Virus record (IMG/VR): IMGVR_UViG_3300045938_000231
Location: 5,423 to 69,422 of that record
DNA: 64,000 nt
From: a virus
Lineage: Duplodnaviria > Caudoviricetes
Reading direction: 5' to 3' (one strand)
Below are positions 23,777 through 46,407 of the stretch, piece after piece. Position 1 is the stretch's first letter. The number at the start of each line of letters is the position of its first letter. Both the position numbers and the translations under genes were made by a program. The notes under the pieces are model-generated. The model made no database searches, was not told the DNA's origin, and saw only the letters and a program-made list of their open reading frames with translations.

Positions 23777-25165
23777 CTACAGGTGGGACCACGACCTACC
23801 CTTCTTGATAGAGGAGACCAGGGAGGTAGAAATCCCGAATAGAGTTGAAATGTACCGACCCGTTTCACCTCTTAAAAGGAGACGCTTTATCTCCAGTACC
23901 TTGTCGGTAGTTAGGGCCGAATGGGGGTTTGCTTCGCCTTTGCGAGCTTTGCCTTGAAACTCGTAAACGAACCCGGTTACATGAGCCCAAATTTTGCCGC
24001 AACGTATTTTTGAAATTGCATCCTTGCTTATGTCGAATTTTAAGGCAATGTCAGGATTTGACCACCCAGCAAGAATCAGCTCTTTTATTTCCAAGACGTT
24101 GCTTTCATTCAGTTTAGCCATTCCGTGAAAGCTGCCTTTGGGATTCCCTTGTCCTAAATTATTGCGCTCGTTCCAGCCTGTTAGATGGTGCCATGTTCGG
24201 CCTATACGAACATCATTTATTGCATCAATACTAAACTTGGTAGCGGATTGTATTTTCCGGTTTGTAAGGCCATTTAATATCAATTCTTTAATTTTCAGAA
24301 CGTCGGTTTCGGCTAAAGTAGACAGGTGACAATCGCTACCGTTTGGCTTTGTTTTGTAATAGACCGGCGTTAAAACCGTTTCGGCTTTTCGCTTCTTTCG
24401 CTCTAAGTAGATGGTGGCATCTTTATACAGCCAAGCCAGAAGAGTAGACGTTTGGTCGCGACCACTGACGACCACTTGTATAATTTCGGGAGTAGTATGA
24501 TGCTTCTGAATAAATGATCGAATCTGACATTTATTTTCAATCAGTTCACCCAGCCTTTCAATGAACGGAATTGACCCTACTGCACCCACTACAGATTCCT
24601 GCCCTTCCCCCCTGAAACTAATCCAGCCATCACCGTCTATATAGCCTCGGATAAAGTGCGGCAATAGCTCTTCTGGCATCCATTCAGGAAAGGTCAGGGT
24701 AAATGATTTTGCTCGACCGCAACCCCACTTAGTAAGGGACTCCGACAACCTTTTACTGCCGATGTCAAGACAAGCCTGCTTGCGCTTATCCACCCGAATC
24801 GGGTGGTTACTATCCAGTGCAACCTTAAATGCTTCCAAAATGTGAACATCTCTCTCTTGAAGGTGTAGTGCTACTTTGTATTTCTGATCCTTCTCGCCGT
24901 TATACCCATCAGCATACAGAAAGCCCAAGAAGTAGGCTTTGGCCTCACAGTCTATGTGATCAAAATAAGCATCGTTGATTTTATGCTTAGTTGAGCAGCT
25001 TTCGGATTTGGTGCGCTTCTGGACGGCATTCTGTGATAGGATTTCATTTAAAGCTAGACGACCAATCTTAAACTGCTTTGTAAGGCTCGTGACTCTTGCC
25101 CCTTGAACATAAGCCCTTACCATTTGCTTTTGTTCTTCCGTGGATTTCTTGGGATATATTCTCAT
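23777..25165 (-). CDS. Free-standing LAGLIDADG homing endonuclease with three C-terminal HTH repeats (cassette A)
   Basis: AYFLGFLYADG and FIRGYIDGDG motifs; repeats ending GRTWHHL, GKIWAHV, GRSWSHL. Confidence 0.88.
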   Translation of the reverse strand: MRIYPKKSTEEQKQMVRAYVQGARVTSLTKQFKIGRLALNEILSQNAVQKRTKSESCSTKHKINDAYFDHIDCEAKAYFLGFLYADGYNGEKDQKYKVALHLQERDVHILEAFKVALDSNHPIRVDKRKQACLDIGSKRLSESLTKWGCGRAKSFTLTFPEWMPEELLPHFIRGYIDGDGWISFRGEGQESVVGAVGSIPFIERLGELIENKCQIRSFIQKHHTTPEIIQVVVSGRDQTSTLLAWLYKDATIYLERKKRKAETVLTPVYYKTKPNGSDCHLSTLAETDVLKIKELILNGLTNRKIQSATKFSIDAINDVRIGRTWHHLTGWNERNNLGQGNPKGSFHGMAKLNESNVLEIKELILAGWSNPDIALKFDISKDAISKIRCGKIWAHVTGFVYEFQGKARKGEANPHSALTTDKVLEIKRLLLRGETGRYISTLFGISTSLVSSIKKGRSWSHL

Positions 25166-25167
25166 GG

Positions 25168-25530
25168 CTAATGATGCTTCACATTACGTTTTTCAGTCTT
25201 TTTCCTAATGAAGTTTTTCGGGTAGGACGCAGTTTGTTCGTGGCACGAATGGCACAAGGTTCGCCCGTTACTTGAGTCCCACAGGAACGAACAGCCTAAA
25301 GCGTCCTCTATACTTTTTAGCCGGTATTCTGTGAGGATTTCCGAGACGCTTTTAATGTGATCGGCTTCAATTACCCTTTTTCGTCCGTTACGCCTACCGC
25401 ACTGCTGACAGGTGAAACGATCACGGATAAACACCGCCCGTTTCCACTGTTCATATTCATCTAGCTTGCGTATTTGACGAACGAGGGCAACGCGGCCCCC
25501 GTTCGTTTTTGCTTGTTTAATTTCAGGCAT
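25168..25530 (-). CDS. HNH endonuclease
   Basis: WKRAVFIRDRFTCQQC...EADHIK...SNGRTLCHSCH. Confidence 0.88.
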   Translation of the reverse strand: MPEIKQAKTNGGRVALVRQIRKLDEYEQWKRAVFIRDRFTCQQCGRRNGRKRVIEADHIKSVSEILTEYRLKSIEDALGCSFLWDSSNGRTLCHSCHEQTASYPKNFIRKKTEKRNVKHH

Positions 25531-25702
25531 TGGACTGTTCACTGATTGAGCTTATGCTTGCCTCAATTCGCTCAATCTGACCTTTGCAAAAAGCTAGGTC
25601 AGTTGTTGGTGTATCGGGGTTCTTTTCGATTTGAGCTAGGTACACTTTCCAGTCGTGTAGCTGAATCTGGAGCATTTGTTTCGGGGTGATTTGATTTGCC
25701 AT
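25523..25702 (-). CDS. MANQ micro-protein, copy 1 (59 aa)
   Basis: Manual translation MANQITPKQMLQIQLHDWKVYLAQIEKNPDTPTTDLAFCKGQIERIEASISSISEQSNA; paralogous to 44727 and 59651. Confidence 0.85.
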   Translation of the reverse strand: MANQITPKQMLQIQLHDWKVYLAQIEKNPDTPTTDLAFCKGQIERIEASISSISEQSNA

Positions 25703-25714
25703 GATGAGGGTTGA

Positions 25715-26050
25715 TTATGAAAGTTGATTGGTGAAATACTGATTAACTGATTGTTGGCGACGGCGAGCAACGGGTAAATCCTGGCCGCTACGAAGGCGCA
25801 CGTACCGATGACTCTTTCCGGTTATCCCCCGCACAAAAGCAGGGTTCACCAAATGGCCTTTGTGGATGCGGATGAAGCCAGGAAGTTGGGCGGCTATCCG
25901 GCTCAGGGTCTGGGACAAGAGGTAGCGCCCGCCATCGCTGGTGAATATGTAGCTGTAGTTGTTGTCTCCCCGAACGCGCACGATCAGGCGAGTGGCTACC
26001 CGGCAGGTCAGTCGACCCACCGGAAGCCAGATAAAAGGCTCGTTTAGCAT
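25715..26050 (-). CDS. Stand-alone LytTR DNA-binding protein
   Basis: GDNNYSYIF...LLSQTL...FIRIHKGHLVN...LPVARRR. Confidence 0.88.
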   Translation of the reverse strand: MLNEPFIWLPVGRLTCRVATRLIVRVRGDNNYSYIFTSDGGRYLLSQTLSRIAAQLPGFIRIHKGHLVNPAFVRGITGKSHRYVRLRSGQDLPVARRRQQSVNQYFTNQLS

Positions 26051-26056
26051 GGTTGA

Positions 26057-26818
26057 TTATTCTTCGGAGTAGTGTAGCTCGGACATAATCAGCGAATACA
26101 GCTCATTGAGATGACCGTACCGCTCGATAGCATCCACGATGCTTTCCGTGCCGATGCGCTGGAGCCGGTAGACGGAAATGCGGTAGACCTCATAAAGCCG
26201 CTTATAGAGGTAATTCCAGGTGGTATAGGTGGCACAATGATTGCGCGCTGCTATCTCTATCACCAAGCGGGGGATCGTCTGCCGTAATGAGGCACCCCCG
26301 ATTGGTACCCGCAACTGTTGCCCCGGTATTGAGGGGGGCGTTTGCTGGGCGGGGGCATGGACTAACCTTTGGCCCGACATGATCAGGTCAACGTCGGCCC
26401 GTAGACGATCAAGTTGCTGTTGCTGATTGGCGAGAAGCTGGTTGCTTTGAGCCATCAACTGTAGCAACACCTGCTCAGTTGTTGGCGGTAGATTGGTTGG
26501 CTGTTCGACTACCTGACGCAAAGTCTCCTCGCAATGGATGAAGTACTGCCGGGCTTCCTTCCCTTTTTCGTTACGCTCGACCATTGACAACTCCTTTGCC
26601 ATGCTCAGCGTCAGGGCGTAGTCGGTTTCAATTCCCCCGCCTACTAAATTCTTAGTAAGCGTTACGTAGTCCCGATCCTCCAGAAAGCCGTACTTGATGA
26701 TGCGGTTCTTGATCCAGTCGTTGAAGCGAGATTTGACCTCCAAAAAGGCGTGCAGATCACGGGCAGACACTACCGACGAACCTTGTCCGTCGGTAGTAAC
26801 TTTTATCAGCTCTTCCAT
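26057..26818 (-). CDS. AntA/AntB-type antirepressor (cassette A)
   Basis: VSARDLHAFLEVKSRFNDWIKNRI...DYALTLSMAKELSMVERNEKGKEARQYFI. Confidence 0.88.
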   Translation of the reverse strand: MEELIKVTTDGQGSSVVSARDLHAFLEVKSRFNDWIKNRIIKYGFLEDRDYVTLTKNLVGGGIETDYALTLSMAKELSMVERNEKGKEARQYFIHCEETLRQVVEQPTNLPPTTEQVLLQLMAQSNQLLANQQQQLDRLRADVDLIMSGQRLVHAPAQQTPPSIPGQQLRVPIGGASLRQTIPRLVIEIAARNHCATYTTWNYLYKRLYEVYRISVYRLQRIGTESIVDAIERYGHLNELYSLIMSELHYSEE

Positions 26819-26830
26819 GATACCCGCTTA

Positions 26831-27274
26831 TTAGTCGATGAGGTTGCTGGTGATGCGGTAGAGCTGGTCTAGCATCGCGCTCTGTATTTCATCAATCTCA
26901 GCGGCAACGTCTAACCCGTAGTTATTGCGCATGGCAACCATTGAGCGTCGATAGCTGGTCAGTGCCTCAAGGACGATCTCAAAATGTGACATCTGGCTAC
27001 CCGATGTAGGGCGGCTGACGTAGAGGGGGAGATATGCCGCCAGGTTGTTGACTGGCATCTGCTCAGTACCTAGATGGTAGGCAGCATTGATAGCGGCTGA
27101 CACCAGATCAGCCTTGATGCTGACAGTGGAGGGGTTTTGCAGGAGTTGGGTTAACTCCTGAAGTTCCCAGTTGACCTCATCCAAGAGGTGCAGAGGGATG
27201 GTGATTTGTCGAGCCGTTGGCTCAAAGGGGGTTGTACAGGCGGCTCGGCCTGCGTAGTTTTGTCCCGTTGACAT
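26831..27274 (-). CDS. Hypothetical protein (cassette A), paralog of 43442-43894
   Basis: TGQNYAG..ACTT.FEPTARQITIP.HLL.EVNWELQEL shared by both copies. Confidence 0.8.
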   Translation of the reverse strand: MSTGQNYAGRAACTTPFEPTARQITIPLHLLDEVNWELQELTQLLQNPSTVSIKADLVSAAINAAYHLGTEQMPVNNLAAYLPLYVSRPTSGSQMSHFEIVLEALTSYRRSMVAMRNNYGLDVAAEIDEIQSAMLDQLYRITSNLID

Positions 27275-27302
27275 TTGAACGAACTGTTTAAATGTTGCAC
27301 TC

Positions 27303-27348
27303 GGCCCCCGTCGCTCTGCTCTGCCAAGAATGTGAGCGCCGGGGGTTT
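27303..27348 (-). promoter_or_regulatory. Conserved leader hairpin (cassette A)
   Basis: Minus strand AACCCCCGGCGCTCACATTCTTGGCAGAGCAGAGCGACGGGGGCC; core ACATTCTTGGC shared with 43371-43414. Confidence 0.55.
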
Positions 27349-27356
27349 TCTATGCC

Positions 27357-27377
27357 TGTCAATGTCCTTCATTGACA
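27357..27377. promoter_or_regulatory. Palindromic operator candidate (cassette A)
   Basis: TGTCAATG-tcctt-CATTGACA, perfect 8-bp arms, between the XRE gene and the cassette ORFs. Confidence 0.6.
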
Positions 27378-27429
27378 ATACAATAATAGCAAAAGTTCTA
27401 TTATGATGCAACTTTTAGGGCAAAAAAAT

Positions 27430-27636
27430 TTAGCTGGCTTTGATTGACAGCTTCGCGCCCATTGCTTCTAAAACCCTGCTTAAAGTCTCGACTGTAATAT
27501 TGTGCTTACCGCTTTCATAGCGATTTATAGTAGTCTTACCTATTCCCAGCTTTTCCCCTAACTCCTCCTGTGTGAGCCTTTTTGCCTTTCTGGTTTCCTT
27601 AATTAACTGCCCTACTTGTTCTGTAATGGTTGACAT
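27430..27636 (-). CDS. XRE-family HTH regulator (cassette A)
   Basis: IKETRKAKRLTQEELGEKLGIGKTTINRYESG. Confidence 0.9.
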   Translation of the reverse strand: MSTITEQVGQLIKETRKAKRLTQEELGEKLGIGKTTINRYESGKHNITVETLSRVLEAMGAKLSIKAS

Positions 27637-27707
27637 GGTTCTGGATAAGTGATGAACAAAGGTAAGGACGGTCATCTCTAGCCACTCTCCTTATTGAGCC
27701 AACGGCT

Positions 27708-28598
27708 TCAATAAAGGGAGTTTGGAAGTAAATCAGAAGTGAAAAATTCATACCATATATATAGGGGAAGGCATAAGAAGAATATAGCTAATAATGTATT
27801 GATTATCACCCAATACGGGACTCCTCTGTACAACTCTTTTGACTGAGGTAATTTATTCAGCGAAAGCATCATGAAAGAGAATAGTAATCCCATCATAGTG
27901 ACAACTATGCCACTAACAAACATTGCTGGTTTTGTTTCACGAGGATCTTTCTGCTTTTCAACTTCGACAAAACCAGCAGGAAAGCCCTTGATTCGAGCGT
28001 TGACGCGCCAATGGTAGTCCGTTGCCTTTGTCGTGTATAAGATTTGATACACTGCGCCGTCTTGTGCTTCAAATCCATCGTCTCCTTTTATTTCTAAACT
28101 GACATCATCGTAAATACTGGCTACCGTGTCTTCGGGGGTACCATAGATGTCGTCTATATGCAGCGTTAGGCCAAGAGCAAGATCAGGTCGGGATGTTTTG
28201 GTCTGATAAACTTCTAATATACCTACTGCTTTGTCGCAGCTAATCGATATCGGATGGTCTTTCGTAAACGCTGACTTGTCAATGAATTCATTACCTGCAT
28301 TCCAAAGGGCAATCGTTACAACACGGACGTTTTTGACCTCTACTGAATCATATATGACTTTTATCTTCGAGTTGGGCAGTCCTTCTGTTATCACCACATC
28401 CGATAAGACCTTGTATACAGGCTTAATCTCCTTGTTAAAGGCATACGTAAGATAAAGCCCCCATATACCAAGCGGAAAACTAATTACTCCCAACCAGTCA
28501 ACCAAGCTTAAATTGCCCCAGAGCGACTTGGAGGTAGGTTTTGTATCCTTGGTAGATAACTCATCAGATAAGCTTTCCTGATCGCTATATTCACTCAT
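27708..28598 (-). CDS. Membrane protein (1 N-terminal and 2 C-terminal TM), cargo
   Basis: Hydrophobic segments flank a beta-rich domain; AT-rich DNA. Confidence 0.75.
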   Translation of the reverse strand: MSEYSDQESLSDELSTKDTKPTSKSLWGNLSLVDWLGVISFPLGIWGLYLTYAFNKEIKPVYKVLSDVVITEGLPNSKIKVIYDSVEVKNVRVVTIALWNAGNEFIDKSAFTKDHPISISCDKAVGILEVYQTKTSRPDLALGLTLHIDDIYGTPEDTVASIYDDVSLEIKGDDGFEAQDGAVYQILYTTKATDYHWRVNARIKGFPAGFVEVEKQKDPRETKPAMFVSGIVVTMMGLLFSFMMLSLNKLPQSKELYRGVPYWVIINTLLAIFFLCLPLYIWYEFFTSDLLPNSLY

Positions 28599-28672
28599 AG
28601 GTTCTGTAGCCTGCTTGAACAAAGTCTAACAAAGCAATAAAAAAATCAATAGCTTTAGTTTCTGTCAACAAC

Positions 28673-28704
28673 AAAAAAGCAGATCAACATTGCTGATCTG
28701 CTTT
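28673..28704 (-). terminator. Intrinsic terminator on the minus strand
   Basis: AAAGCAGATCAGC-aat-GTTGATCTGCTTTTTT on the minus strand. Confidence 0.75.
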
Positions 28705-28748
28705 CCGCTTCTATCCACACCATACAGGCCTGAGCCTGATTGATTGGT

Positions 28749-28756
28749 CAAAGATA
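28749..28756 (-). promoter_or_regulatory. Bacteroidota -7 promoter element TATCTTTG
   Basis: Exact TAnnTTTG match on the minus strand; no clear -33 TTTG. Confidence 0.5.
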
Positions 28757-28915
28757 GACATCTTCATGTACATACACGAACTTAGCCAGTGGTTGTGTAA
28801 GCAAGTTGCGTATAGCCTCTAACTAATCTGAGTACCTCTTGTAAATAAAAGCACAAAATCAGTTCTTGCAGCCTGACTGCTAACAGCCAAAATCCACAAA
28901 ACTCATTTAAGGGTT

Positions 28916-29401
28916 ATGATTTGGGAACAAGAATTATGGGATCGCCTGGACAATTATTCTAAAGCGACAAAATTAGAAAAAGGGAATGCTTTACCACTTT
29001 CTATAAAAATTAGAGTAACCGCAGGCTGTTTTCACAGAGAGCATTCGCCGGAAGCATATACAATAATTGATGAGTTTTATAGTCAAAATACGGACAAATC
29101 AATAAAGCTAGTTGAACACGAGAATGGCCCTGAGTTATTGGTTTATCTTGCATTCACTACAGCAGTACTAAGCCTTTCTGCTCAGACTATCAATTTTGTC
29201 TCTACAATCATTAAGGCTAGAAGTGAAGGTGTAAAGAAAGGAGACATGCCAAATGAGTCAATTGAATTAATTGTTAGAGGCTTTGACAAGAAGGGTAAGA
29301 TAAAAGAAGAGAAGGTACTTAAAATTAATTCGACTGATAAAATATCAAATAAAAATATAGACGTAGCCTTAAAGCACGTCATGAAAAAATTTATAGAGTA
29401 A
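28916..29401 (+). CDS. Hypothetical cargo protein
   Basis: 161 aa, AT-rich, opposite strand to the late operon. Confidence 0.75.
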   Translation: MIWEQELWDRLDNYSKATKLEKGNALPLSIKIRVTAGCFHREHSPEAYTIIDEFYSQNTDKSIKLVEHENGPELLVYLAFTTAVLSLSAQTINFVSTIIKARSEGVKKGDMPNESIELIVRGFDKKGKIKEEKVLKINSTDKISNKNIDVALKHVMKKFIE

Positions 29402-29418
29402 TAGGATTACTACAATAA

Positions 29419-30000
29419 ATGATTTTTAAGATAATAGCCATTCTTGCAAGAATAAGTATTCGTTACGGTGGCGCTAGCGGTAAATTTTACTCGGTTTTTT
29501 CAGAAGATTCTAAGTACAATATTTACAAGAAAGCACAAGGCTTCCGGAGGAATAATCAGGTTGACTACGAAATATCCAAAGCCACATTCTATAAAATGCG
29601 TAATAAGGGGCTTGTTATAGACGGAACAAAGGGAGGGTTAATCGTTGGCCCTTCGCACGAGGAAGGTGGAGTGTTAGTTGTTCGGGAGTACTTAGATAAG
29701 ATTTTAGTAGTAGCTGAGCTAGAGGGTTACGAATATTTTATAAATGCAAAAGCCTCAAAGCAGTACTATAGCGAAATAGAAAAAATAAACTCAGCTTATG
29801 AGCAACGGGTTGATTATGTGAAATTCGCTTCATATAAAATTCCAGCTACAATACGTGTTATTGATGTTCAGCATAAGAAAGTAGATGGTAAGTCGGAGCG
29901 TCCACTTTTGTTGATGCGTCAAGATCAGTGGTGTGTAAATAGGTTATCAAGCAAAGAATACCTAAAGCAGTTAGATCAGATGAATAACAAGTGTATTTAG
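29419..30000 (+). CDS. Hypothetical cargo protein with GPSHxxGG motif
   Basis: GGLIVGPSHEEGGV...ELEGYEYFINAKAS. Confidence 0.7.
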   Translation: MIFKIIAILARISIRYGGASGKFYSVFSEDSKYNIYKKAQGFRRNNQVDYEISKATFYKMRNKGLVIDGTKGGLIVGPSHEEGGVLVVREYLDKILVVAELEGYEYFINAKASKQYYSEIEKINSAYEQRVDYVKFASYKIPATIRVIDVQHKKVDGKSERPLLLMRQDQWCVNRLSSKEYLKQLDQMNNKCI

Positions 30001-30019
30001 CTCAGTAATCAGTCGCTCT

Positions 30020-31018
30020 CTATATTCGGTAGGGTAACGCAGATTTTGTTATAGCACAACCACTGTAGCCGTGTTGTTTGAGAAGTATTTCTATTCCCTT
30101 CTTCGCTGGCTCATAGTCTAGGCTTGGCCCTACAATAATTTTCGTTATTGGAAGCCTTTTGTGCATCTCAACCATAGTAGGTAGTGCACCAGCATCACTA
30201 AGATGCTCTCGGTCCTTATAATATTTATACCTGTTTTGAAGTAATATGTAAGGAATTAGTAGGTTGCCATTCGTCCGAAAGTTTATTTTTAACTCATCGC
30301 CTTCATCGGGATTTTCTTCATTGTACTCTTCATTTTCAGAGTGGTATATAAACCGACATTCTTGTTCATGGGCAAAACATGGGTGCTTAAAGGATGATAG
30401 ATAATCAGCCATGTTTCTAATCATACACAAAGTCACCAATTGGTTGTGTTTTTCGTCTCGCCAGTCGGAGAAATTCGTATTAAAGTATTCTATTGTCCCT
30501 AGAACACAATTCTCTATAATATCTCTTTGATCGGTTTGGTTATAGATTATCCTCGTACTCTTTATATCTGGTTCAAGATTGTAATGCCTTTCATGGAACG
30601 TAAATCCTACTGATACACCTTTCCCATCTTTTGCGTAGGAGCGCCATTGTTGCAACAAGTCACCGTCCGAAGAGAAGCACGTCACGTATTTATCTTCCGG
30701 AAAATGAGTGTCGAGTTTATCTAAGAGATTATCTATGATAGCTTTGTTTCCAGCGTTACTCAATGAAGATATTATCTCTTTTGATAGATTTATTCCGTAA
30801 TCGAATTCGGTGCTATCATTTAGAAATCTTATATCAGAAGCAAACAAAGACTGGTTAGTTACAATGCCTATCAGACCATTCAAATCCGTATAGTGGTAAA
30901 GCTCATTTATCTTTCCACTATATCTACTCATTTTTTCTGTTTTTGTAAAAACATAGTACCAACAATCAAGCAAAAGGACATTTAACTGTTGGTTAGATAA
31001 ATCTTTTAGTTGTTCCAC
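30020..31018 (-). CDS. DUF2971 family protein
   Basis: LYHYTD...YVTCFS..GDLLQQWRSYA..GKGVSVGF...FKHPCFAHEQECR. Confidence 0.85.
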   Translation of the reverse strand: MEQLKDLSNQQLNVLLLDCWYYVFTKTEKMSRYSGKINELYHYTDLNGLIGIVTNQSLFASDIRFLNDSTEFDYGINLSKEIISSLSNAGNKAIIDNLLDKLDTHFPEDKYVTCFSSDGDLLQQWRSYAKDGKGVSVGFTFHERHYNLEPDIKSTRIIYNQTDQRDIIENCVLGTIEYFNTNFSDWRDEKHNQLVTLCMIRNMADYLSSFKHPCFAHEQECRFIYHSENEEYNEENPDEGDELKINFRTNGNLLIPYILLQNRYKYYKDREHLSDAGALPTMVEMHKRLPITKIIVGPSLDYEPAKKGIEILLKQHGYSGCAITKSALPYRI

Positions 31019-31080
31019 TATAAAATGCAGTTGGTTGTAAGTTGAGAGTTGATTAGTTCGAACGGGATTCAGGTCTGGTT

Positions 31081-31395: not shown

Positions 31396-31420
31396 AAAGC
31401 GAGAAAGGGTATGTTTGACT

Positions 31421-31428: not shown

Positions 31429-31438
31429 AGAAACAATA

Positions 31439-31472: not shown

Positions 31473-31477
31473 ATCTA

Positions 31478-37382: not shown

Positions 37383-37395
37383 ACTTATAAACGTC

Positions 37396-37833: not shown

Positions 37834-37861
37834 CACCGTAATAATTAGGTACCCAAATAAG

Positions 37862-39082: not shown

Positions 39083-39489
39083 TTTTTTACGTTGTCGAGG
39101 TGATCGACGATCATTTGCTGAGTCAGGCCCAGGGTAGACCATTTCTCAATCAATTTGAACAGGTTGTCTTCGGAATAATCAGTAACGGGCTCCCCATTGA
39201 CGGAGTGGACATGGCACGCCCAGTCCAGCTGGCCAGCCTGGTAGCCGTCCTTGGCCATCACCCGGGCAAGCCGGTAATTGTACAGCTGTTCCCGGAACTC
39301 GTCGACCTTGCCGGCAGCACCGAACATTTCAGCGCGGCTCAGCATAGCATCCTGTTCGGTTTCGTTCTGGCCTAACTCAGCAGCCACGATTTCGTATTGC
39401 TTCGCCTTCTGATACAGGCTTGCCGGCATCTCCATGCACGAATCATACATGGTGTACTTTAGAGACGGACTAATATGGTGCTCTGTCAT
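39028..39489 (-). CDS. Tail assembly chaperone (gpG-like)
   Basis: 153 aa upstream of the tape measure gene with a slippery run near its 3' end. Confidence 0.72.
   Translation of the reverse strand: MTEHHISPSLKYTMYDSCMEMPASLYQKAKQYEIVAAELGQNETEQDAMLSRAEMFGAAGKVDEFREQLYNYRLARVMAKDGYQAGQLDWACHVHSVNGEPVTDYSEDNLFKLIEKWSTLGLTQQMIVDHLDNVKKNSSQNWLDTFQSDLLEV
39080..39088 (-). other. Programmed -1 ribosomal frameshift site (A AAA AAA/C)
   Basis: Minus strand GTA AAA AAA AAC; the -1 frame is the open downstream ORF. Confidence 0.72.
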
Positions 39490-39774
39490 TTTCGATACAT
39501 TGAACGGTTAGAGCCAGGCGAAAACACACGTACGCGAGTAGAACCTCATCCGCTTTACAACGTGGGCACTCATTAAACAATACGTAACAGGTTAGGGGAA
39601 TAGGCATCTAGGCGTCGGGGTTAAGCGGGACGCAGCAAGCCTGGTGAGATGTGCCGAAGGGTAAAGATAACAGATAGGCAGCTTTTTGAGGGAGTATCTT
39701 ACTTACAGTTTTACTATTATTGGCAACTAACAATAATAAAGAGCTTCACACCCTAAAGACCTGCTTTAATAACC

Positions 39775-41091
39775 GTGAGTTCCACCGAGAAAAAGTACCA
39801 GCTATTTATCAGTTCCACCTATGAGGATTTGAAAGGAGCACGTGATGAAGTCATCAAAGCGATCCTTAGTATGTATCATATCCCTATTGGCATGGAGATG
39901 TTTAGTGCCGATGATACGGAGCAGTGGGATACCATCAAAGAAACCATTGATAACAGCGACTATTACGTTTTGATCATTGGGCATCGCTACGGCTCAGAGA
40001 CAAAACAGGGAATCAGTTATACGGAGAAAGAGTTCGACTACGCCCGCAAAAAGAAGATTCCTGTCTATACGTTTGTTCGCAACCGAAACGTACCCACCTC
40101 GCCCCAGGAGAGAGATACCGACCCCAGTAAGGCAGTGAAGCTTGAGGCCTTCATCAAGAAAGCCCAGGCTACAATGGTAGACTTTTGGGATACTCCAGGC
40201 GATTTAGGCCAAAAAGTGTCCATTGCGATGATGAAAGCTTTTACCCGGCGGCCGAGAACGGGATGGGTAAAGAGCGACCAGGCGGCCTCGTCAGAAACCC
40301 TGAAAGAACTAACTACGCTTAGCCGTGAGAATCGAGAACTAAAGGAGGAATTGAACAAACTTAAGGCTTACAAAGCGGCAACACCATCTTTACAGGTCAC
40401 TTTTAATGGAGAAGAAAATATAGTATTAAATTTTTCTCAAGATTACGATTCCTCAACCCTTATATCATTTATTACCCCTGAGATTCTCAATAGTCAGGAT
40501 GATGGAATTATTGATAGACTGAATTCACGTTTAATCGATCCGTACAATAAATGGATAGAAAGTAATCCCAAGGTTGTAAAAGAATATAATCAATCTATAA
40601 TTCACTATGAAAAAGCTAAAGCTAGTGTCGCTAAATTCATGGTTGGCCTGAAGAACACCGGAACACTTAAAGCTAATGATATTAACGTCATTATCACCTT
40701 CCCGGTTGAGTTTATGGTATTTGACTCGAAAACAAAAAAGCAAATACCAAATCGCCTTCCCTTTGAAAACTTACCTGATAATCCTCTTGAAGAAGCAATA
40801 AAACTTTATAATAAAGAAAATAAAATCAGCAAAAAAGCACGTGATTACACAAAATCTATTTTGGCATCAGAGCTAAATATAAAGTCGAACCACCATTTTA
40901 TAGAAATAAAAGAACGGACTGTTAATTTCCATTGCAAGTACCTGCTTCATACGCAAAGTTTACGTGATGATAATGATTTAAACATTTACTTATTACCAAT
41001 AGCGATAGGGAACTTTTTGGCCAAGGTGGAAATAATATGTGAGGAGTACAGTGAACCTCAGAATTATGAAATCCCTATCATAGTACAATGA
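39775..41091 (+). CDS. DUF4062 domain protein with variable C-terminal domain
   Basis: KYQLFISSTYEDL...PIGMEMFSA...IDNSDYYVLIIGHRYGS...SYTEKEFDYA. Confidence 0.88.
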   Translation: MSSTEKKYQLFISSTYEDLKGARDEVIKAILSMYHIPIGMEMFSADDTEQWDTIKETIDNSDYYVLIIGHRYGSETKQGISYTEKEFDYARKKKIPVYTFVRNRNVPTSPQERDTDPSKAVKLEAFIKKAQATMVDFWDTPGDLGQKVSIAMMKAFTRRPRTGWVKSDQAASSETLKELTTLSRENRELKEELNKLKAYKAATPSLQVTFNGEENIVLNFSQDYDSSTLISFITPEILNSQDDGIIDRLNSRLIDPYNKWIESNPKVVKEYNQSIIHYEKAKASVAKFMVGLKNTGTLKANDINVIITFPVEFMVFDSKTKKQIPNRLPFENLPDNPLEEAIKLYNKENKISKKARDYTKSILASELNIKSNHHFIEIKERTVNFHCKYLLHTQSLRDDNDLNIYLLPIAIGNFLAKVEIICEEYSEPQNYEIPIIVQ

Positions 41092-41180
41092 AATAGCCTA
41101 CTATCAGACAAGATTCATAAAATTAGCTCAGGTATTTTACGGTATTTACTATGTTTTGCATTTGCTTGTAATATTTATAT

Positions 41181-41804
41181 ATGGACGAAAGGCAGGTTAT
41201 TTTGAGGGTCGATGGTTGGTACATTGGCTCAGCCAGAGAGGTGATTAGTCTATTGACGGATTTAGAGGCCGCTTATGACAGCCTCTATGCATTTGAGGCT
41301 ATTGTTGACTCGTTATATCAGCACGTTTATGCCGTTCGAGATCAAAAGCGATATGACTGGAGCGATATTTTGTTTCGTAACCGTAAAGGGCTTGGCTCTG
41401 TCTATGGTTTCTTACCAAGTCTTTATGATTTGGTTGCAGACATCAATATCGGACGGATTGTTCTACCTGAGCATCGGCTTCAAATCAACAAAGTAAGCTT
41501 TCAGTCACCTGGATTTTGGGAGTTCTTGGGGTCAATGAACCCAATGCAACAAATAAGAGAGTACTTGAAGGATGCTCATGAGCGCGACAAAGACCGTCTT
41601 TATCGTATTGACCAAGAAAGGCGTAGCGGAGAGCTGGAGATACAGCATAAACAAAACGAGCTAATCAATCAGCGGATTGATACACTTAAAAAACTGGGCT
41701 ACAGTGAAATAGAGATCAGGGAATTTATTGCAGTAATGGTTCACGAGCCGTTAGCTAAGCTGGATAAATACAAAGATTCAGGCCAGTTGGGTGAACCTCA
41801 ATAG
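41181..41804 (+). CDS. Hypothetical cargo protein
   Basis: 207 aa, SPGFWEFLG motif and coiled coil. Confidence 0.75.
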   Translation: MDERQVILRVDGWYIGSAREVISLLTDLEAAYDSLYAFEAIVDSLYQHVYAVRDQKRYDWSDILFRNRKGLGSVYGFLPSLYDLVADINIGRIVLPEHRLQINKVSFQSPGFWEFLGSMNPMQQIREYLKDAHERDKDRLYRIDQERRSGELEIQHKQNELINQRIDTLKKLGYSEIEIREFIAVMVHEPLAKLDKYKDSGQLGEPQ

Positions 41805-41836
41805 CCTTGAAAAGATTGCCTATAAACTTAACTCAT

Positions 41837-43000
41837 ATGATTTGCTTATACTGTAATTTAGAGAAAGACGAAAGTGAGTTTTCACAAGAACACGTTATAC
41901 CAAAAGCTTTAGGAGGAAATATAGAAACTAACAATCCCTTCTCAATCAATAACGTTTGTAAAAAGTGTAACAATATAAGTGGACTCTTTATAGATGCTGC
42001 CTTTATTAAAAGTTGGACTTCGACAAAATCGAAAGCATATTTTTACTATAAATATTTTGATTTGACTATAGATTCAGTAGTTCCATTAGATTACCTAGGG
42101 GAATTCCAAAGTACTGAACTAGATGATAATATATGTGATGTATGGACTTGTGCAGGAGGGGATTTAATATATCACTTCCATAAGCCTTACCCCAAAGATA
42201 TCGACTGCCCTCCAATCGTTGGTATACCTTCAACAGCGTACAAGAAAGAGATTGATCCTGGGTTTGTAATTTTCTTCTTATTAACCAGTAACAAAGCGTG
42301 GCATCCAGCTATCCTAAAGGCATTAAATCAACAATTTAAAAAGTCTAGGTTTTATCTTGGAGTTGGCCCTAAGCCAGAAAATATACCAAATTTTTTTAAT
42401 TTAGAAGAAGATAAAAAGAAGTATTTAAACTTAGTGATGCCTGATGGCCGTGTTCAGAACATTCTTATAAAAATAGGGGTAAATTTTGATTTTAGATTTA
42501 TTTGTAAAATTGCTTTAGGTATTGGAGGGGCTGTTTTGCATGAGAGCTTCCAGCAAAGTCGTTCCGCACAATTGCTTAGAGATGGTATGTGGGCAAAGAC
42601 ATACGAACAGAAATTAAAAACAGAAGTAAATCTTAAGGGATCTTTTGCTTACACTATTCCTAAAAACTTGGAACCAGCCTTTATTTGGGAATCTGGACAT
42701 CTCGTGTTATTAAATATTATAAACAAATCTTTATACTTGAATGTAAACTTTTATGGTACAGACAATTTTACTGTACTATTATCTAATGAACCTCAACATT
42801 GGTCGGGAATTTTGGCGTCAAGCATAGCATACGTTATATGCCCAACGCTCAAAAGAGCTGTAGGCCCAGTAATGTTAAAAGATTTTTTAGCTTTCCAATT
42901 AGGTGAGATTAATGACCTTGATTCTTTAAATCAACTAAAGGAGGAAATGAATCGAAAGAGAGATATACCACCATTCTTTATAGATAGAGAAGATGCTTAG
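41837..43000 (+). CDS. N-terminal HNH nuclease with large unknown C-terminal domain
   Basis: CLYC...SQEHVIPKALGG...NNVCKKCNN; AT-rich. Confidence 0.82.
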   Translation: MICLYCNLEKDESEFSQEHVIPKALGGNIETNNPFSINNVCKKCNNISGLFIDAAFIKSWTSTKSKAYFYYKYFDLTIDSVVPLDYLGEFQSTELDDNICDVWTCAGGDLIYHFHKPYPKDIDCPPIVGIPSTAYKKEIDPGFVIFFLLTSNKAWHPAILKALNQQFKKSRFYLGVGPKPENIPNFFNLEEDKKKYLNLVMPDGRVQNILIKIGVNFDFRFICKIALGIGGAVLHESFQQSRSAQLLRDGMWAKTYEQKLKTEVNLKGSFAYTIPKNLEPAFIWESGHLVLLNIINKSLYLNVNFYGTDNFTVLLSNEPQHWSGILASSIAYVICPTLKRAVGPVMLKDFLAFQLGEINDLDSLNQLKEEMNRKRDIPPFFIDREDA

Positions 43001-43079
43001 GCTTTAACCGCTTTTATGTAATGTTATTTCATAGTTTACAAAGTCGTTATATTTATAGCCTGATCAACAAAGTATTCAA

Positions 43080-43286
43080 GTGAGTGAAATTCTAAAACAA
43101 GCAGGCGAACTGCTTAAACAAACCCGCCTAGCAAAAGGGCTGACCCAGCAGGAGTTAGGTGAGAAATTAGGGTTAAACCGATCAACGATCAACCGCTATG
43201 AAAATGGAACTCAGAATTTGACGCTTGACACCTTACAAAGGGTAATGGGTGCCATGGGTGAGAAAATAAAGCTTACTAAAACATAA
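43080..43286 (+). CDS. XRE-family HTH regulator (cassette B)
   Basis: LKQTRLAKGLTQQELGEKLGLNRSTINRYENG; paralog of 27430-27636. Confidence 0.9.
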   Translation: MSEILKQAGELLKQTRLAKGLTQQELGEKLGLNRSTINRYENGTQNLTLDTLQRVMGAMGEKIKLTKT

Positions 43287-43339
43287 GTTTTTTTCTCTTT
43301 ATTGTTGTTATATAATGAAACAATTGGTAATATTGTAAG

Positions 43340-43358
43340 GTTAACAAAGTACGTTGAC
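43340..43358. promoter_or_regulatory. Operator candidate (cassette B)
   Basis: GTTAAC-aaagtac-GTTGAC; 14 of 19 positions match the cassette A operator read on the minus strand. Confidence 0.55.
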
Positions 43359-43370
43359 ACTAAATAAAAA

Positions 43371-43414
43371 AGCCCCCTAACGCTACATTCTTGGCGGAAC
43401 CGGCGAAAGGGGGT
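43371..43414 (+). promoter_or_regulatory. Conserved leader hairpin (cassette B)
   Basis: AGCCCCCTAACGCTACATTCTTGGCGGAACCGGCGAAAGGGGGT. Confidence 0.55.
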
Positions 43415-43441
43415 GCGACACAATCAAACTATACAGTTATC

Positions 43442-43894
43442 ATGTGTACGGGACAAAACTACGCAGGCCAACCCGCCTGTACAACCTCCTTTGAGCCAAC
43501 GGCTCGACAAATTACCATCCCCCCGCACCTCTTGGGTGAGGTCAACTGGGAACTTCAGGAGTTAGCCCAACTCCTACAAAACCCCTCCGTTTCCAGCATT
43601 AACGCTGAGCTGGTGGCCGCTGCCATTAATGCTGCCTATCATCTGGGCACCCAGTATCCTTCTGCTCAGCCTGTGGTAACCGAGGGAGTCACTATCACCC
43701 TCTACGTTAACCGGCCTGCTACGGGTAGCCAGATGTCCCAGTTCGAGGTCGTCAACACCGCCCTCACCCGCTACCGCCAGAGCCTGATCAGTATCAAGGG
43801 CTGTGGCTACGAGGATATCATCTCCGACATCGACGAAGTGCAGGAGGAGTTGATGGACCAACTCTGTCAGATCACATCCAACCTGATTGGTTAA
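43442..43894 (+). CDS. Hypothetical protein (cassette B)
   Basis: MCTGQNYAG...; paralog of 26831-27274. Confidence 0.8.
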   Translation: MCTGQNYAGQPACTTSFEPTARQITIPPHLLGEVNWELQELAQLLQNPSVSSINAELVAAAINAAYHLGTQYPSAQPVVTEGVTITLYVNRPATGSQMSQFEVVNTALTRYRQSLISIKGCGYEDIISDIDEVQEELMDQLCQITSNLIG

Positions 43895-43899
43895 CACCA

Positions 43900-44658
43900 A
43901 TGGAGGAGCTTATCAAGCTAACTCGTGACGGACTAGGTTCGTCACGGGTTGACTCTGCTCGTGAACTGCACGCCTTTCTGGGCGTCAAGTCCCGCTTTGC
44001 CGACTGGTTCAAGAACCGGGTCCGACAGTACGAGTTCGTCGAGGACCGGGACTACGTAACGTTTTCTAAGAATTTAGAAAACGGGGGACGGGAGTTGGAC
44101 TACGAGTTGACGCTGGGCATGGCCAAGGAGTTGGCGATGGTGGAGCGCACCGAGAAGGGCAAACAGGCACGGCAGTATTTTATTCAGTGCGAGGAGATGC
44201 TACGGGAGGTCTACCAGCAAGCCCTGCCCACCCAACAAGCGGCCAACACGGAGCAGGTCTTGCTCCAGCTAGTGAGCCAGAGCAACCAGCTTCTGGCCAA
44301 TCAGCAACAGCAACTTGACCGCCTACGGGCTGACATGGATCTGATCATGGCCGGCCACAAGCCCGTCCGGCACACCCCGCCCCTGCCCGGTCAACAGCTA
44401 CGTATTCCCGGCGTGCCACCGGCTTCGCTTCGGCCCATGATCTCCCGGCTGGTGCTGGAATACTGCGGCACCAGCGGGGCCAGCACCCATGACACCTGGA
44501 ACTACCTCTACAAACGACTCTTCGAAGTCTACGGCATTTCGGTGTACCGCTTGCAGCGCATCGGCACCGAAAGCATCGTGGACGCCGTGGAGCGCTACGG
44601 CCATCTGGACAAGCTGTATTCGCTGATCATGGCCGAACTCAACTACGCTGAAGAGTAA
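43900..44658 (+). CDS. AntA/AntB-type antirepressor (cassette B)
   Basis: SARELHAFLGVKSRFADWFKNRV...MAKELAMVERTEKGKQARQYFI. Confidence 0.88.
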   Translation: MEELIKLTRDGLGSSRVDSARELHAFLGVKSRFADWFKNRVRQYEFVEDRDYVTFSKNLENGGRELDYELTLGMAKELAMVERTEKGKQARQYFIQCEEMLREVYQQALPTQQAANTEQVLLQLVSQSNQLLANQQQQLDRLRADMDLIMAGHKPVRHTPPLPGQQLRIPGVPPASLRPMISRLVLEYCGTSGASTHDTWNYLYKRLFEVYGISVYRLQRIGTESIVDAVERYGHLDKLYSLIMAELNYAEE

Positions 44659-44726
44659 TCAATTCTTTCTCTCACCGGGGCCGCAAGGTCGCTACCTGAC
44701 CGGCTCCCAGCTTTTCAATCTCCATT

Positions 44727-44897
44727 ATGGCAAACCAAATCACCCCCAAAGCAATGCTTACCCTCCAGTTACACGACTGGAAAGTTTTACTGGCTCAACT
44801 AGAAGCCAATCCCGATACACCGGCGGCTGATATAATTTTTTGTCAGGCTAAAGTGCAACAGATCGAACGGGAGATCAACGATCTGACAATTCAGTAA
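44727..44897 (+). CDS. MANQ micro-protein, copy 2 (56 aa)
   Basis: MANQITPKAMLTLQLHDWKVLLAQLEANPDTPAADIIFCQAKVQQIEREINDLTIQ. Confidence 0.85.
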   Translation: MANQITPKAMLTLQLHDWKVLLAQLEANPDTPAADIIFCQAKVQQIEREINDLTIQ

Positions 44898-44900
44898 CGT

Positions 44901-45074
44901 ATGGGGAAGACGCGGCCAACCCCGCTGGAGCGGCTGACGCAGCAACTGGGCAGTTGTGAGGCCTGGTTGGCTGAGTTGGAGAAGCAACGCCCCCCGGTCA
45001 GCCTTAATGAGCTTATCTACTGGCAGGCTCAGGTCAGGCGGCTCAAGAAAGAAATAGAAGTACTTAGTAAGTAA
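44901..45074 (+). CDS. Divergent MANQ-like micro-protein (57 aa)
   Basis: MGKTRPTPLERLTQQLGSCEAWLAELEKQRPPVSLNELIYWQAQVRRLKKEIEVLSK; aligns loosely with the MANQ copies. Confidence 0.65.
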   Translation: MGKTRPTPLERLTQQLGSCEAWLAELEKQRPPVSLNELIYWQAQVRRLKKEIEVLSK

Positions 45075-45126
45075 TCAAACGGGCCGGTTGGCTCACTAGC
45101 TAACCGGCTCTAAATAGAGCTAATTT

Positions 45127-46407
45127 ATGGCACCCAAAAGCGCCTTGTTAGGCAAAGAGGCAGAGGTTATCAAATTGTATGAAAGTGGTCAAAGTTGTAT
45201 TGGAGTCGCGAAACAGTATAAAGCTTCTGAACTGACTGTCAAAAAAATTCTACTTAAGAATGGGGTTGTTCTGAACAGACAAAAATCCTCAGAAAGGGCC
45301 ATTTACGTAGTACAGGCTTATCAGAACGGAAAGAGCCTTACAGCAACAGGGGACGAATTTGGTCTAAGCGCCATTGCTGTCTTAAAGATTCTGGCTAAAC
45401 ATGGTATTGAGCCTAGATCAAAAAGCAGACAGTTGAAAGAGAAGATGCTCAGGCAGGGAGAAGAAATAATAGAAGCTTACAGACAGGGAAAGAATCAGAA
45501 TGAAATCTGCACTACGTATAGAATTGGCCGTTTAGCTCTACTTTCCTTGCTTGAAAAGGCTGGTTGTAAGAAAAGGCACCACGGCGATAATATTCGACGC
45601 TACGCTGTAGATCACTCATATTTCGACAATATTGACTCAGAACAAAAAGCCTATTTTCTAGGCTACATGTTTGCAGATGGGTACAACAATGAGCAGGAAG
45701 GCTATTTCCTGTTGACTCTTCATCCAAAGGATGTAGAAGTACTTACTTCTTTCAAAAACGCACTCCAGACTGAGGCTCCTGTGCGCGTTAAACAGAGAGA
45801 GAGAAGTCCATATTGTAAATTACTTGTACACAGCAAACGACTATCCGAGCGACTAGCCGAACTAGGTTGCGTACAAGCCAAAACTTTTAAAATAACCTTC
45901 CCTAATTGGCTCAACCCAAATTTATATAATCACTTTGTACGTGGTTATTTCGATGGCGATGGGTCAATTTCAGACGTTAATAGGGCAAAATTCAAAAGCT
46001 TTATTGACATACTTGGTACTACGTCATTTATATCAACCCTTGCAGATATAGTTAGCAAGCTTTGCAATGTCAGGACTAAAATCATTGCACACCCCCGTAG
46101 CTTAGGCATTGAACGAGTGAATGTTCGGGGAAACAATCAAGTGAAACGAGTAGTGAGCTGGCTATATCAAGATGCCACGGTATTTTTAAGTCGAAAGAAG
46201 CAACGGGCCGATGCGATTTTATCAACCAATTTTGTCAGGGCAAGAGGTAAAGCAACAAAAAGAGCAGTAACGAAAAGCATGGCCCAAGAGATCAAAAACC
46301 TGTTAAGCGTTGAATTATCAGATCGTATCATCGCCGAGAGGTTTGATATTTCTACGCACGTTGTCTATCAAATCCGAACTGGCCGTTCTTGGGCTAGGGT
46401 ATTATAA
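45127..46407 (+). CDS. Free-standing LAGLIDADG homing endonuclease with HTH modules (cassette B)
   Basis: AYFLGYMFADG and FVRGYFDGDG motifs; three N-terminal HTH-like repeats; C-terminal GRSWARV module. Confidence 0.88.
   Translation: MAPKSALLGKEAEVIKLYESGQSCIGVAKQYKASELTVKKILLKNGVVLNRQKSSERAIYVVQAYQNGKSLTATGDEFGLSAIAVLKILAKHGIEPRSKSRQLKEKMLRQGEEIIEAYRQGKNQNEICTTYRIGRLALLSLLEKAGCKKRHHGDNIRRYAVDHSYFDNIDSEQKAYFLGYMFADGYNNEQEGYFLLTLHPKDVEVLTSFKNALQTEAPVRVKQRERSPYCKLLVHSKRLSERLAELGCVQAKTFKITFPNWLNPNLYNHFVRGYFDGDGSISDVNRAKFKSFIDILGTTSFISTLADIVSKLCNVRTKIIAHPRSLGIERVNVRGNNQVKRVVSWLYQDATVFLSRKKQRADAILSTNFVRARGKATKRAVTKSMAQEIKNLLSVELSDRIIAERFDISTHVVYQIRTGRSWARVL

Follow-up and report, generated by a model that had tools for sequence, protein, structure and literature searches.

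Two paralogous cassettes of regulator, AntA-type, and homing endonuclease genes in the tail-gene cluster of a Bacteroidota prophage

A single Spirosoma-type prophage, represented by the 69.4-kb IMG/VR provirus record IMGVR_UViG_3300045938_000231 (parent contig, 166.7 kb), houses two collinear cassettes that combine a small regulator gene, a structured leader, the gene for an AntA-type protein, and genes of homing endonuclease families. Cassette A occupies 27636-23777 on the minus strand and cassette B occupies 43080-46407 on the plus strand of the 64,000-nucleotide (nt) stretch that we analyzed (the window), which corresponds to positions 5423-69422 of the record. Our comparisons show that each copy, along with the AT-rich cargo beside it, was inserted at a gene junction of the tail cluster where the closest relatives have an empty site. 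We interpret the two blocks as old paralogous copies of a modular accessory operon that is specific to Spirosomataceae, gated by a repressor, spread by nucleases, and subject to exchange of its front end, a reading on which our confidence is evenly divided.

The unit can be described in three parts. The front end consists of a 68-amino-acid (aa) XRE gene, a promoter with an inverted repeat, a covarying hairpin, and the first ~12 codons of the second open reading frame (ORF2). The payload, which tracks the lineage of the phage, is made up of the body of ORF2, the coiled coil and C-domain of an AntA/Rha-type protein, and the micro-protein MANQ. At the distal end are predicted free-standing homing endonuclease genes, whose sequences assign them to the small HNH, LAGLIDADG, or GIY-YIG classes with helix-turn-helix (HTH) arrays.

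Results

Gene content and paralogy

An earlier annotation made from the nucleotides alone (the sequence-only reading) had listed the genes of both cassettes, and Pfam searches bear out every domain call. The features are as follows.

27430-27636, minus: XRE_A, 68-aa HTH_3 regulator (Pfam HTH_3, E 3e-16)
26831-27274, minus: ORF2_A, 147 aa, N-terminal motif M-x-T-x-Q-N-Y-x-G followed by a phage-lineage-specific body
26057-26818, minus: Ant_A, 253 aa (PF08346, E 8e-26; phrog_373 "anti-repressor" over the full length)
25715-26050, minus: stand-alone LytTR DNA-binding protein, 111 aa (PF04397, E 6e-14), cassette A only
25523-25702, minus: MANQ_A micro-protein, 59 aa, 59% identical to B_56 and 61% to the early-operon copy
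25168-25542, minus: small HNH endonuclease, 124 aa (PF01844, 24.7 bits, cutoff 21.4), cassette A only
23777-25165, minus: LAGLIDADG_A, 462 aa (PF14528, above the cutoff of 22.5 bits; phrog_4645 "endonuclease," E 1e-52)
23703-23752: perfect 19-bp hairpin closing cassette A, between convergent genes
43080-43286, plus: XRE_B, 68-aa HTH_3 regulator (Pfam HTH_3, E 9e-16)
43442-43894, plus: ORF2_B, 150 aa, ATG aligned with that of A (a TTG at 43391 would give 167 aa)
43900-44658, plus: Ant_B, 252 aa (PF08346, E 2.5e-26)
44727-44897, plus: MANQ_B (B_56), 56 aa
44901-45074, plus: MANQ-like B_57, 57 aa, a weak MANQ paralog (36% identity)
45127-46407, plus: LAGLIDADG_B, 426 aa (PF14528; phrog_4645, E 1e-64)
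46411-46443: perfect 16-bp hairpin closing cassette B
59651-59821, plus: backbone copy of MANQ in the early operon, upstream of DUF3846 and a Rad52-family annealing protein, 70% identical to B_56

XRE_A has an alternative start at 27675, and its homologs in other cassettes (67-70 aa) favor 27636. The ORF2 motif is common to all cassettes; for homologs of ORF2, a word-seeded search and an exhaustive HMMER search recovered only the two paralogs, and the ESM Atlas gave no lead. In Ant_A, an AntA N-domain is followed by a coiled coil and a small helical C-domain. The AlphaFold2 model of Ant_B (mean predicted local distance difference test score, 77.5) has a winged-helix-like N-domain, followed by a helix of 34 residues, a disordered linker, and a C-domain of four helices that is modeled with confidence. 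The small HNH protein is matched by ten PHROG HNH families and displays the CxxC...H...N...CxxC-H pattern. Both LAGLIDADG proteins score above the PF14528 cutoff (24.0 and 25.2 bits) and contain motifs of the types ..LGFLYADGY.. and ..IRGYIDGDG.. in a single chain, while their homologs carry PF14528 or PF00961. In LAGLIDADG_A, the double-motif core is flanked by HTH repeats; a sequence search of the PDB with this protein returned no match. Between the end of LAGLIDADG_B and the 3' end of a conserved gene of the backbone lie 55 nt.

The cassettes had been proposed to be paralogs under selection, and their comparison agrees with both points. They share gene order and 56-70% aa identity for the four genes from XRE to MANQ (XRE about 56-58%, ORF2 62%, Ant 70%, and MANQ 59%), along with 34% identity for LAGLIDADG, and their DNA is 70% identical over ~1.55 kb, from inside XRE to the end of Ant. 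Differences in Ant fall mostly at third codon positions (58/35/114 at positions 1/2/3). The ratio of nonsynonymous to synonymous divergence (dN/dS) is 0.15 for Ant, 0.155 for MANQ, and 0.40 for ORF2; in the last 50 codons of Ant, the proportion of nonsynonymous differences (pN) is 0.09 versus 0.64 for synonymous differences (pS); and XRE and LAGLIDADG are saturated at synonymous sites. These values indicate that both copies are maintained by selection and that the duplication is old. A recent duplication was rejected, since synonymous sites are near saturation. Against a background of 55-80% identity, ~140 nt at the start of ORF2, corresponding to its first ~47 codons (27130-27270 / 43446-43586), are 90-95% identical, with few changes, most of them nonsynonymous. 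This tract is either a recent conversion tract or the product of constraint at the nucleotide level. A second tract, ~60 nt at 90% identity, lies in the coiled coil of Ant (26400-26451 / 44276-44330) and is likewise attributable either to conversion or to a nucleotide-level element.

Insertion sites in the tail-gene cluster

The proposed insertion into the late operon can now be placed at two tail-cluster junctions, which were defined by alignment with cassette-free relatives. Four collinear backbone relatives lack both cassettes (L168/G009, G213, G081, and a Spirosoma spitsbergense prophage). Site A is empty in 4/4 of them, where the homolog of an 881-aa tail protein follows the tape-measure gene after 0-9 bp. 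The same junction holds 8.8 kb in the window, comprising small ORFs, a ParE toxin-antitoxin pair, cassette A, island 1, and a 104-aa gene. Site B lies between gene X (homolog of 46463-47026) and gene Y (homolog of 39028-39489). The two genes overlap by 8 nt in G081 and are separated only by a LytTR gene (plus a 113-aa gene) in G009 and G213; in the window, they are separated by 7 kb that contains island 2 and cassette B. Searches for related loci with ORF2 or gene X, in viral contigs and two metagenome scans, found nothing.

Block B left a scar, which reveals how it arrived.

39486-39534, minus: insertion scar immediately preceding the start of Y, a relic copy of the final ~16 codons of X; intact copy at 46473-46521

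Between the scar and the intact copy there are 8 synonymous and 3 nonsynonymous codon differences. The pattern is that of two diverged functional alleles, not of a decayed target duplication, and it implies that block B entered by recombination with another, diverged phage lineage. One crossover fell inside X; the other took the form of an illegitimate join immediately upstream of the former X/Y overlap. We found no flanking repeats of ≥14 nt around cassette A or B, the unit encodes no transposase that belongs to a known family, and no target duplication was seen.

In two cassette-free relatives, the LytTR gene at site B is coupled to backbone gene X (L168 2362-2679; L195 3390-3761). A LytTR gene also stands directly after Ant in the window and in L171, L179, L191, and L192. 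As a module, LytTR seems able to pass from backbone to cassette or the reverse.

AT-rich islands

Each cassette had been described as lying beside an AT-rich island. The islands are indeed located directly 5' of each XRE gene, with a GC content of 0.34-0.41 versus ~0.50-0.55 in the backbone.

27708-31018: AT-rich island 1, encoding 304-aa, 161-aa, and 193-aa proteins with no assigned family and DUF2971 (GC 0.36-0.41)
39775-43000, plus: AT-rich island 2, encoding DUF4062, a 207-aa protein, and an HNH_5 protein (GC 0.34-0.39)

DUF2971 matches the PADLOC candidate PDC-S31 (E 8e-9), and PADLOC returned no match for ORF2, Ant, or the other 6/7 island genes, DUF4062 and HNH_5 included. Genes with defense- or toxin-type domains occur within ~5 kb of most cassettes examined; examples are DUF4062, TIR_2 (twice), Ntox44, Mrr, AAA_21/OLD-TOPRIM, AbiGi, Abi_alpha, RES-Xre, and ParE. 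The association of cassettes with defense-type genes is only suggestive.

A conserved, covarying leader

The region between XRE and ORF2 can be aligned across species. It starts with a T-run after the XRE stop, followed by a Bacteroidota-type promoter (TTG, 20 nt, TAnnTTTG-like), a TGTCAATGAGG-type box directly after the -7 element, a hairpin of the form CCCC..GCU..CUUGGCRGA..AGC..GGGG, and the first codons of ORF2. The operator and hairpin claimed in the sequence-only reading are present in both cassettes, though the inverted repeat is imperfect in B.

27245-27412, minus: leader A, with GTTG at 27409-27412, 20 nt, and TATTATTG at 27381-27388, then the conserved start of ORF2
27357-27377, minus: leader A inverted repeat, perfect, TGTCAATG-N5-CATTGACA
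27305-27345, minus: leader A hairpin
43304-43471, plus: leader B, with GTTG at 43304-43307, 20 nt, and TAATATTG at 43328-43335, then the conserved start of ORF2
43339-43359, plus: leader B inverted repeat, imperfect (5/8 symmetric)
43373-43413, plus: leader B hairpin

In short-leader variants the box is an inverted repeat whose halves change together, from TGTCAATG/CATTGACA in A to TGTTAATG/CATTAACA in L007 and TATCAATG/CATTGATA in L092. A covariance model of the leader has exactly two matches in the window, at 27245-27353 (88.5 bits) and 43366-43471 (92.6 bits). The leader proved to be conserved in 14 cassettes at first and then in 37, the latter being the number of matches to the model among the collected loci. 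Across these 37, 95% of cells in the hairpin pair, and compensatory change affects 7/11 pairs (34 cells). None of 500 shuffled controls reached as high a value, and slid controls pair at 42-58%. Rfam 15 contained no match to the leader at E ≤ 1, for the window and three other loci.

Seven cassettes carry an additional conserved insert of ~60 nt (GGCGATATAGTACC...GGTTGCC) between the operator box and the hairpin (L006 at 9330-9430, L169, L171, L088, L018, L014, and the first cassette of L005). Direct copies of the GTCAAT box border this insert, for which Rfam has no match and which does not occur in the window.

Recurrence among Spirosomataceae

The closest homologs of the cassette proteins are from Spirosoma and Fibrella (Cytophagales), and the gene order recurs in at least eight genomes of these genera as well as in viral contigs. 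Thus, the genes co-occur elsewhere. Nor is the unit fixed at the same loci in all relatives: it occupies at least four different tail-cluster junctions in related phages. One S. spitsbergense prophage has two cassettes 9 kb apart, XRE-132 aa-Rha/Ant-61 aa-GIY-YIG and XRE-132 aa-AntA-61 aa-HNH-LAGLIDADG, the latter upstream of the tape-measure gene. Spirosoma arboris has XRE-133-AntA-61-HNH-...-GIY-YIG and a second arrangement, XRE-NUMOD4/HNH_3-110-126-AntA-HNH-GIY-YIG, which is also upstream of a tape-measure gene. Spirosoma oryzicola has XRE-Ant-LytTR-103-integrase-like-HNH, and Spirosoma validum has XRE-124-105-AntA-YopX-GIY-YIG, antisense between tail genes. The same order is found in Fibrella forsythiae and in metagenomic contigs L006, L007 (two cassettes), L088, and L092.

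The most constant neighbor of Ant is the small HNH gene, which is ~60% identical in L005, L007 (twice), L169, L170, L088, and L092, and nucleases occur at the same distal position in at least 18 of ~30 Ant-bearing cassettes. Copies of the leader marker number 5 in S. spitsbergense, 16 in S. arboris, and 12 in F. forsythiae. The marker was detected in 13 of the 121 Spirosomataceae genomes sampled, which is a lower bound given the stricter filters used, and in an order-level sample it was restricted to members of the Spirosomataceae. About 7 kb from an S. arboris cassette, L169 has, at 1816-1999, a tRNA gene with a weak match to the Y RNA-like YrlA immediately after it (36.9 bits, below the gathering score).

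Mosaic inheritance and variable payloads

The idea that each cassette is inherited as one block does not hold up, as separate trees and identities for the parts reveal a mosaic. ORF2 is 62% identical between copies within the window prophage and 82% within S. spitsbergense, and from one genome to another, similarity is confined to the N-terminal ~35 residues or to partial matches that are weak. For the C-half of Ant, pairs from the same prophage are 69%, 70%, and 83% identical and form sisters (support, 100/98-100); nearly all other pairs are at ≤62%, with L088/Sarb_21 the highest exception at 78%. Similarly, MANQ identity is 59-70% and 69% within a genome versus 23-38% between genomes. The XRE copies are about 56-58% identical in the window and 42% in S. 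spitsbergense, and the latter pair was rejected as sisters (approximately unbiased test, p-AU 0.024). In the Ant N-domain, Rha replaces AntA in one S. spitsbergense cassette (Sspi_1), and the domain of cassette A (W_A) groups with the L007 pair. LAGLIDADG_A is nearer to proteins of other genomes (41%, 38%) than to LAGLIDADG_B (34%). It follows that ORF2, the Ant C-half, and MANQ track the host phage, while shuffling affects XRE, the Ant N-domain, and the nucleases. In the case of the window, one old duplication that covered XRE-ORF2-Ant-MANQ was not rejected (XRE pair, 78/78; N-domain p-AU, 0.19).

We also examined 20 loci defined by the leader marker, 18 of them independent of the training set of the covariance model. 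An XRE gene is directly upstream in 18, the ORF2 N-motif is present in 16, Ant in 11, and a nuclease in 8. The loci that continue differently lead into a tyrosine integrase (L178, L189), NUMOD4/HNH_3 (L177), TnpB (L175), DUF6932 (L184), or Peptidase_M78 (L185). The XRE-leader front end is thus more general than the payload and is predicted to drive integrase and TnpB genes too. The sequence-only reading had proposed an endonuclease-mobilized antirepressor cassette. That description fits the commonest form. It does not extend to the whole family, in which one nuclease class can stand in for another and roughly half of the leader-marked loci lack Ant or lack a nuclease.

Three cassettes are bracketed by paired 28- to 56-nt palindromic elements (L170, 35 nt, 91%; L088, 56 nt, 86%, homologous to those of L170; L169, 28 nt, 82%). 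In L170 (8021-8055 / 12530-12583) and L088 (8697-8752 / 12543-12598) these are copies of a ~50-nt element that is itself palindromic, with the center GTAGCTAC; candidate roles for it are a terminator, a recombination site, and a nuclease target. Paired elements of this kind were not found around cassettes A and B, nor around those of L005, L172, and L187.

The prophage and its other accessory genes

Just left of the window, at 1424-4508 of the record (locus L173), are genes for a 451-aa tyrosine integrase and a 342-aa CI-like repressor with HTH_3 and Peptidase_S24 domains (2779-3807 of the record), beside which an HTH_17 gene is divergently transcribed. The combination indicates an integrated temperate phage whose primary immunity region is of the normal kind. 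Since integrase and CI are both encoded just outside the window, a phage-plasmid lacking them was ruled out. The minus-strand late operon includes head and head-tail genes (46463-48901), tail genes (37939-39489), the tape-measure gene (31478-35635), and the gene for the 881-aa tail protein (20015-22660). The INPHARED phage collection contained no close relative of either the cassette or the backbone.

The gene for phrog_8914 "virion structural protein" (38690-39489, minus) is split in the window into two overlapping ORFs, 39028-39489 and 38690-39142. It is a single 257- to 263-aa ORF in L168 and L196, and G213 has the same split (L195 3742-4167, 4089-4529). A decaying prophage was rejected on the basis of the identical pair of overlapping ORFs in G213; the split may be a programmed frameshift instead. 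In relatives, two co-oriented genes of ~150-180 aa occupy the tail-chaperone position between the tail-tube-like and tape-measure genes. The window has an antisense 469-aa protein and a 145-aa protein in that position (35973-37833, plus), and no homolog of the relatives' genes was found anywhere in the window.

Within the block inserted at site A, a ParE/RelE-family toxin gene (23400-23693, plus; PF05016, E 9e-15) has an 83-aa partner upstream, and the pair (23092-23693) is convergent with LAGLIDADG_A. Further free-standing nuclease-type genes are found at 41807-43000 (plus; HNH_5 with a long C-terminus of no assigned family) and 63068-64000 (plus; HNH_3 with a sigma-70 region-4 HTH), bringing the nuclease genes in this one prophage to five.

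Discussion

Our results suggest how such a unit might operate. In the lysogen, XRE bound to the inverted repeat would keep the operon off. Upon entry into a cell without the cognate XRE, or during induction, derepression would yield the Ant-like protein, its partners, and the nucleases. The Ant-like protein and partners might then act on a phage-specific target, the simplest being the CI-type S24 repressor at the prophage end, in which case Ant would be a true antirepressor. The lineage-specific C-half of Ant is compatible with repressor binding, which is no proof of it. Meanwhile, the nucleases could cut cassette-less alleles of co-resident related phages, and repair would copy the cassette and its neighboring cargo in a form of intron-less homing. 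Finally, the conserved leader might also provide a patch of homology that lets front ends and payloads be exchanged, and the mosaicism would then be accounted for.

An argument can be made against several elements of this scheme. The activities assigned to all parts are predictions from sequence. Foldseek found no significant match in the PDB for the C-domain of the Ant model, and the ANT/KilAC domain (PF03374) was not matched in Ant_A, Ant_B, or full-length relatives, even though more distant AntA proteins do carry it; it is thus only the family to which the N-domain is assigned that suggests antirepressor function. As the CI repressor carries an S24 autocleavage domain itself, SOS induction does not require an antirepressor. 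In cassette B, the putative operator is only 5/8 symmetric. Among the 20 leader-marked loci, Ant is found in only 11, the others having integrase, TnpB, DUF6932, or Peptidase_M78, and nucleases, present in only 8, are not obligatory. Furthermore, site-specific homing predicts insertion at the same site, yet the sites differ, which fits only if nuclease specificities differ as well. No scar comparable to that of site B was found at site A, and the palindromes that bracket three cassettes hint at a different route of mobility.

These points leave room for other explanations. The unit may have no mobility of its own and simply be one of the accessory ("moron") operons of temperate Spirosoma phages, subject to inheritance, duplication, and loss as other accessory genes are, with nucleases landing beside it independently and repeatedly because intergenic gaps in the late operon tolerate them. 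Such a history would accommodate the variable nuclease class, the uncoupling of nuclease phylogeny from the payload, the nuclease-free half of the leader-marked loci, the old duplication that was not rejected for the window, and the lack of terminal repeats on its cassettes. It has more difficulty with the shared distal position of the nucleases and with a small HNH gene that is more conserved beside Ant across genomes than chance landing would give. The occupation of different junctions in related backbones, the empty sites of four relatives, and a scar that records import from another lineage also speak against it, and we consider this account unlikely, if a serious one. By comparison, a broader version of the modular operon seems possible, and we offer it tentatively. 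The cassettes may belong to a new class of composite mobile cassettes in temperate phages of Bacteroidota, in which a universal front end is both a lysogeny-linked switch and an exchange patch, the payload coevolves with the phage repressor or recombination machinery, and the mobility gene is interchangeable (three homing endonuclease classes, tyrosine integrase, or TnpB); such cassettes would reach more than 10 copies per genome and drag defense-type cargo into tail-gene junctions.

Alternatively, the cassettes could serve in competition between phages or in superinfection. Silenced by XRE, they would encode nucleases that degrade rival genomes and an Ant-like protein that disturbs the lysogeny or regulation of a rival, and the AT-rich genes would be part of the same defensive neighborhood. 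The defense- and toxin-type domains near most cassettes and the match of DUF2971 to PDC-S31 are in line with this, and homing endonucleases are known to exclude co-infecting phages, as cited in PMC7468147 and PMC10448857. On the other hand, a single island gene matches a candidate defense family, any enrichment of such genes is only suggestive, a payload that tracks its own phage lineage better fits a self-directed target, and the front end would also drive an integrase. A competitive role strikes us as quite improbable. Least probable is a hairpin-bounded transposable cassette, in which a recombinase acting in trans or the unit's own nuclease would use the ~50-nt hairpin elements, and the window copies would be old ones that have lost their ends. 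Although paired palindromes exactly bracket the cassette in L170, L088, and L169, TnpB genes lie beside two cassettes, and there are up to 16 copies per genome, such repeats are missing around the window cassettes, L005, L172, and L187. Moreover, there is neither a transposase of a known family nor a target duplication, and the site B scar is a diverged allele. We continue with the modular, nuclease-spread operon as our working interpretation.

The modular operon shares ingredients with several known systems. Free-standing homing endonuclease genes typically abut conserved genes, and LAGLIDADG_B borders a conserved gene that has a foreign allele at its 3' end. Such endonucleases mobilize flanking DNA, with phage examples that include the seg and mob genes of T4 and the ICP1-type nuclease genes at recombination boundaries (PMC2790892, PMC2988022, PMC10448857). 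As in those cases, the LAGLIDADG, HNH, and GIY-YIG genes of the cassettes are situated between conserved phage operon genes, vary in presence among relatives, and appear to take flanking DNA along. Unlike them, the cassette nuclease is the last gene of a five- to seven-gene operon with its own repressor, a conserved structured leader, and a lineage-specific payload; it is interchangeable, sometimes with an integrase or TnpB; and the host is a temperate Bacteroidota phage, with cassette homing predicted from sequence.

A second parallel is offered by the immI regions of P22 (mnt-arc-ant, inside the late region) and P1 (c4-icd-ant), which are secondary immunity regions that control an antirepressor. 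Here too, an ant-family gene is far from the CI/integrase region, in the late cluster, behind a small dedicated gene for a predicted repressor and a structured leader. Location and gene order fit, and the inverted repeat, a putative operator that is imperfect in B, lies directly after the -7 box. The cassettes differ in having an XRE HTH_3 regulator as opposed to ribbon-helix-helix proteins (Mnt/Arc) or antisense RNA (c4, sar), and in having two copies per phage with different regulators and attached endonucleases. Furthermore, the match to AntA is confined to the N-domain, the C-domain bears no relation to ANT/KilAC, and binding to a repressor is hypothetical. Iyer, Koonin, and Aravind (2002) reportedly described Bro-N/KilA-N/Rha/AntA proteins as domain-shuffled DNA-binding proteins of DNA viruses. 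The cassette proteins resemble them in that the N-terminal DNA-binding module (AntA versus Rha) is exchangeable on a common C-terminal part, in their multiple copies per genome, and in their association with nuclease domains, but the exchange takes place inside a conserved operon and the C-half covaries with ORF2 and MANQ by phage lineage. Finally, Aca-controlled anti-CRISPR loci are HTH-gated accessory operons in phage late regions. They share with the cassettes a small HTH autoregulator that gates a strong promoter and small, fast-evolving accessory genes among structural genes; in the cassettes, however, the regulator is the first gene and is transcribed separately, and the payload is an Ant-like protein with nucleases, with no known anti-defense activity.

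While the ingredients are known (free-standing homing endonucleases, immI-type ant operons, and HTH-gated operons), their combination is apparently undescribed. In agreement with what the sequence-only reading had suspected, we found no description of the combination, the leader, or its distribution in the searchable literature. The cassettes join three topics that are usually studied apart, namely, homing endonucleases, antirepressor-type regulators, and the accessory or defense islands of phage late operons, and they do so in a phylum, Bacteroidota, whose temperate phages are almost unstudied. The 106-nt covarying leader, which is absent from Rfam, is a searchable marker for copy number, spread, and payload diversity, and cultured lysogens (S. 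spitsbergense DSM 19989, S. arboris HMF4905, and F. forsythiae HMF5405) allow homing, repression, and antirepression to be studied directly. If our interpretation is true, endonuclease-linked cassettes may be a general route by which prophages gain and exchange accessory cargo.

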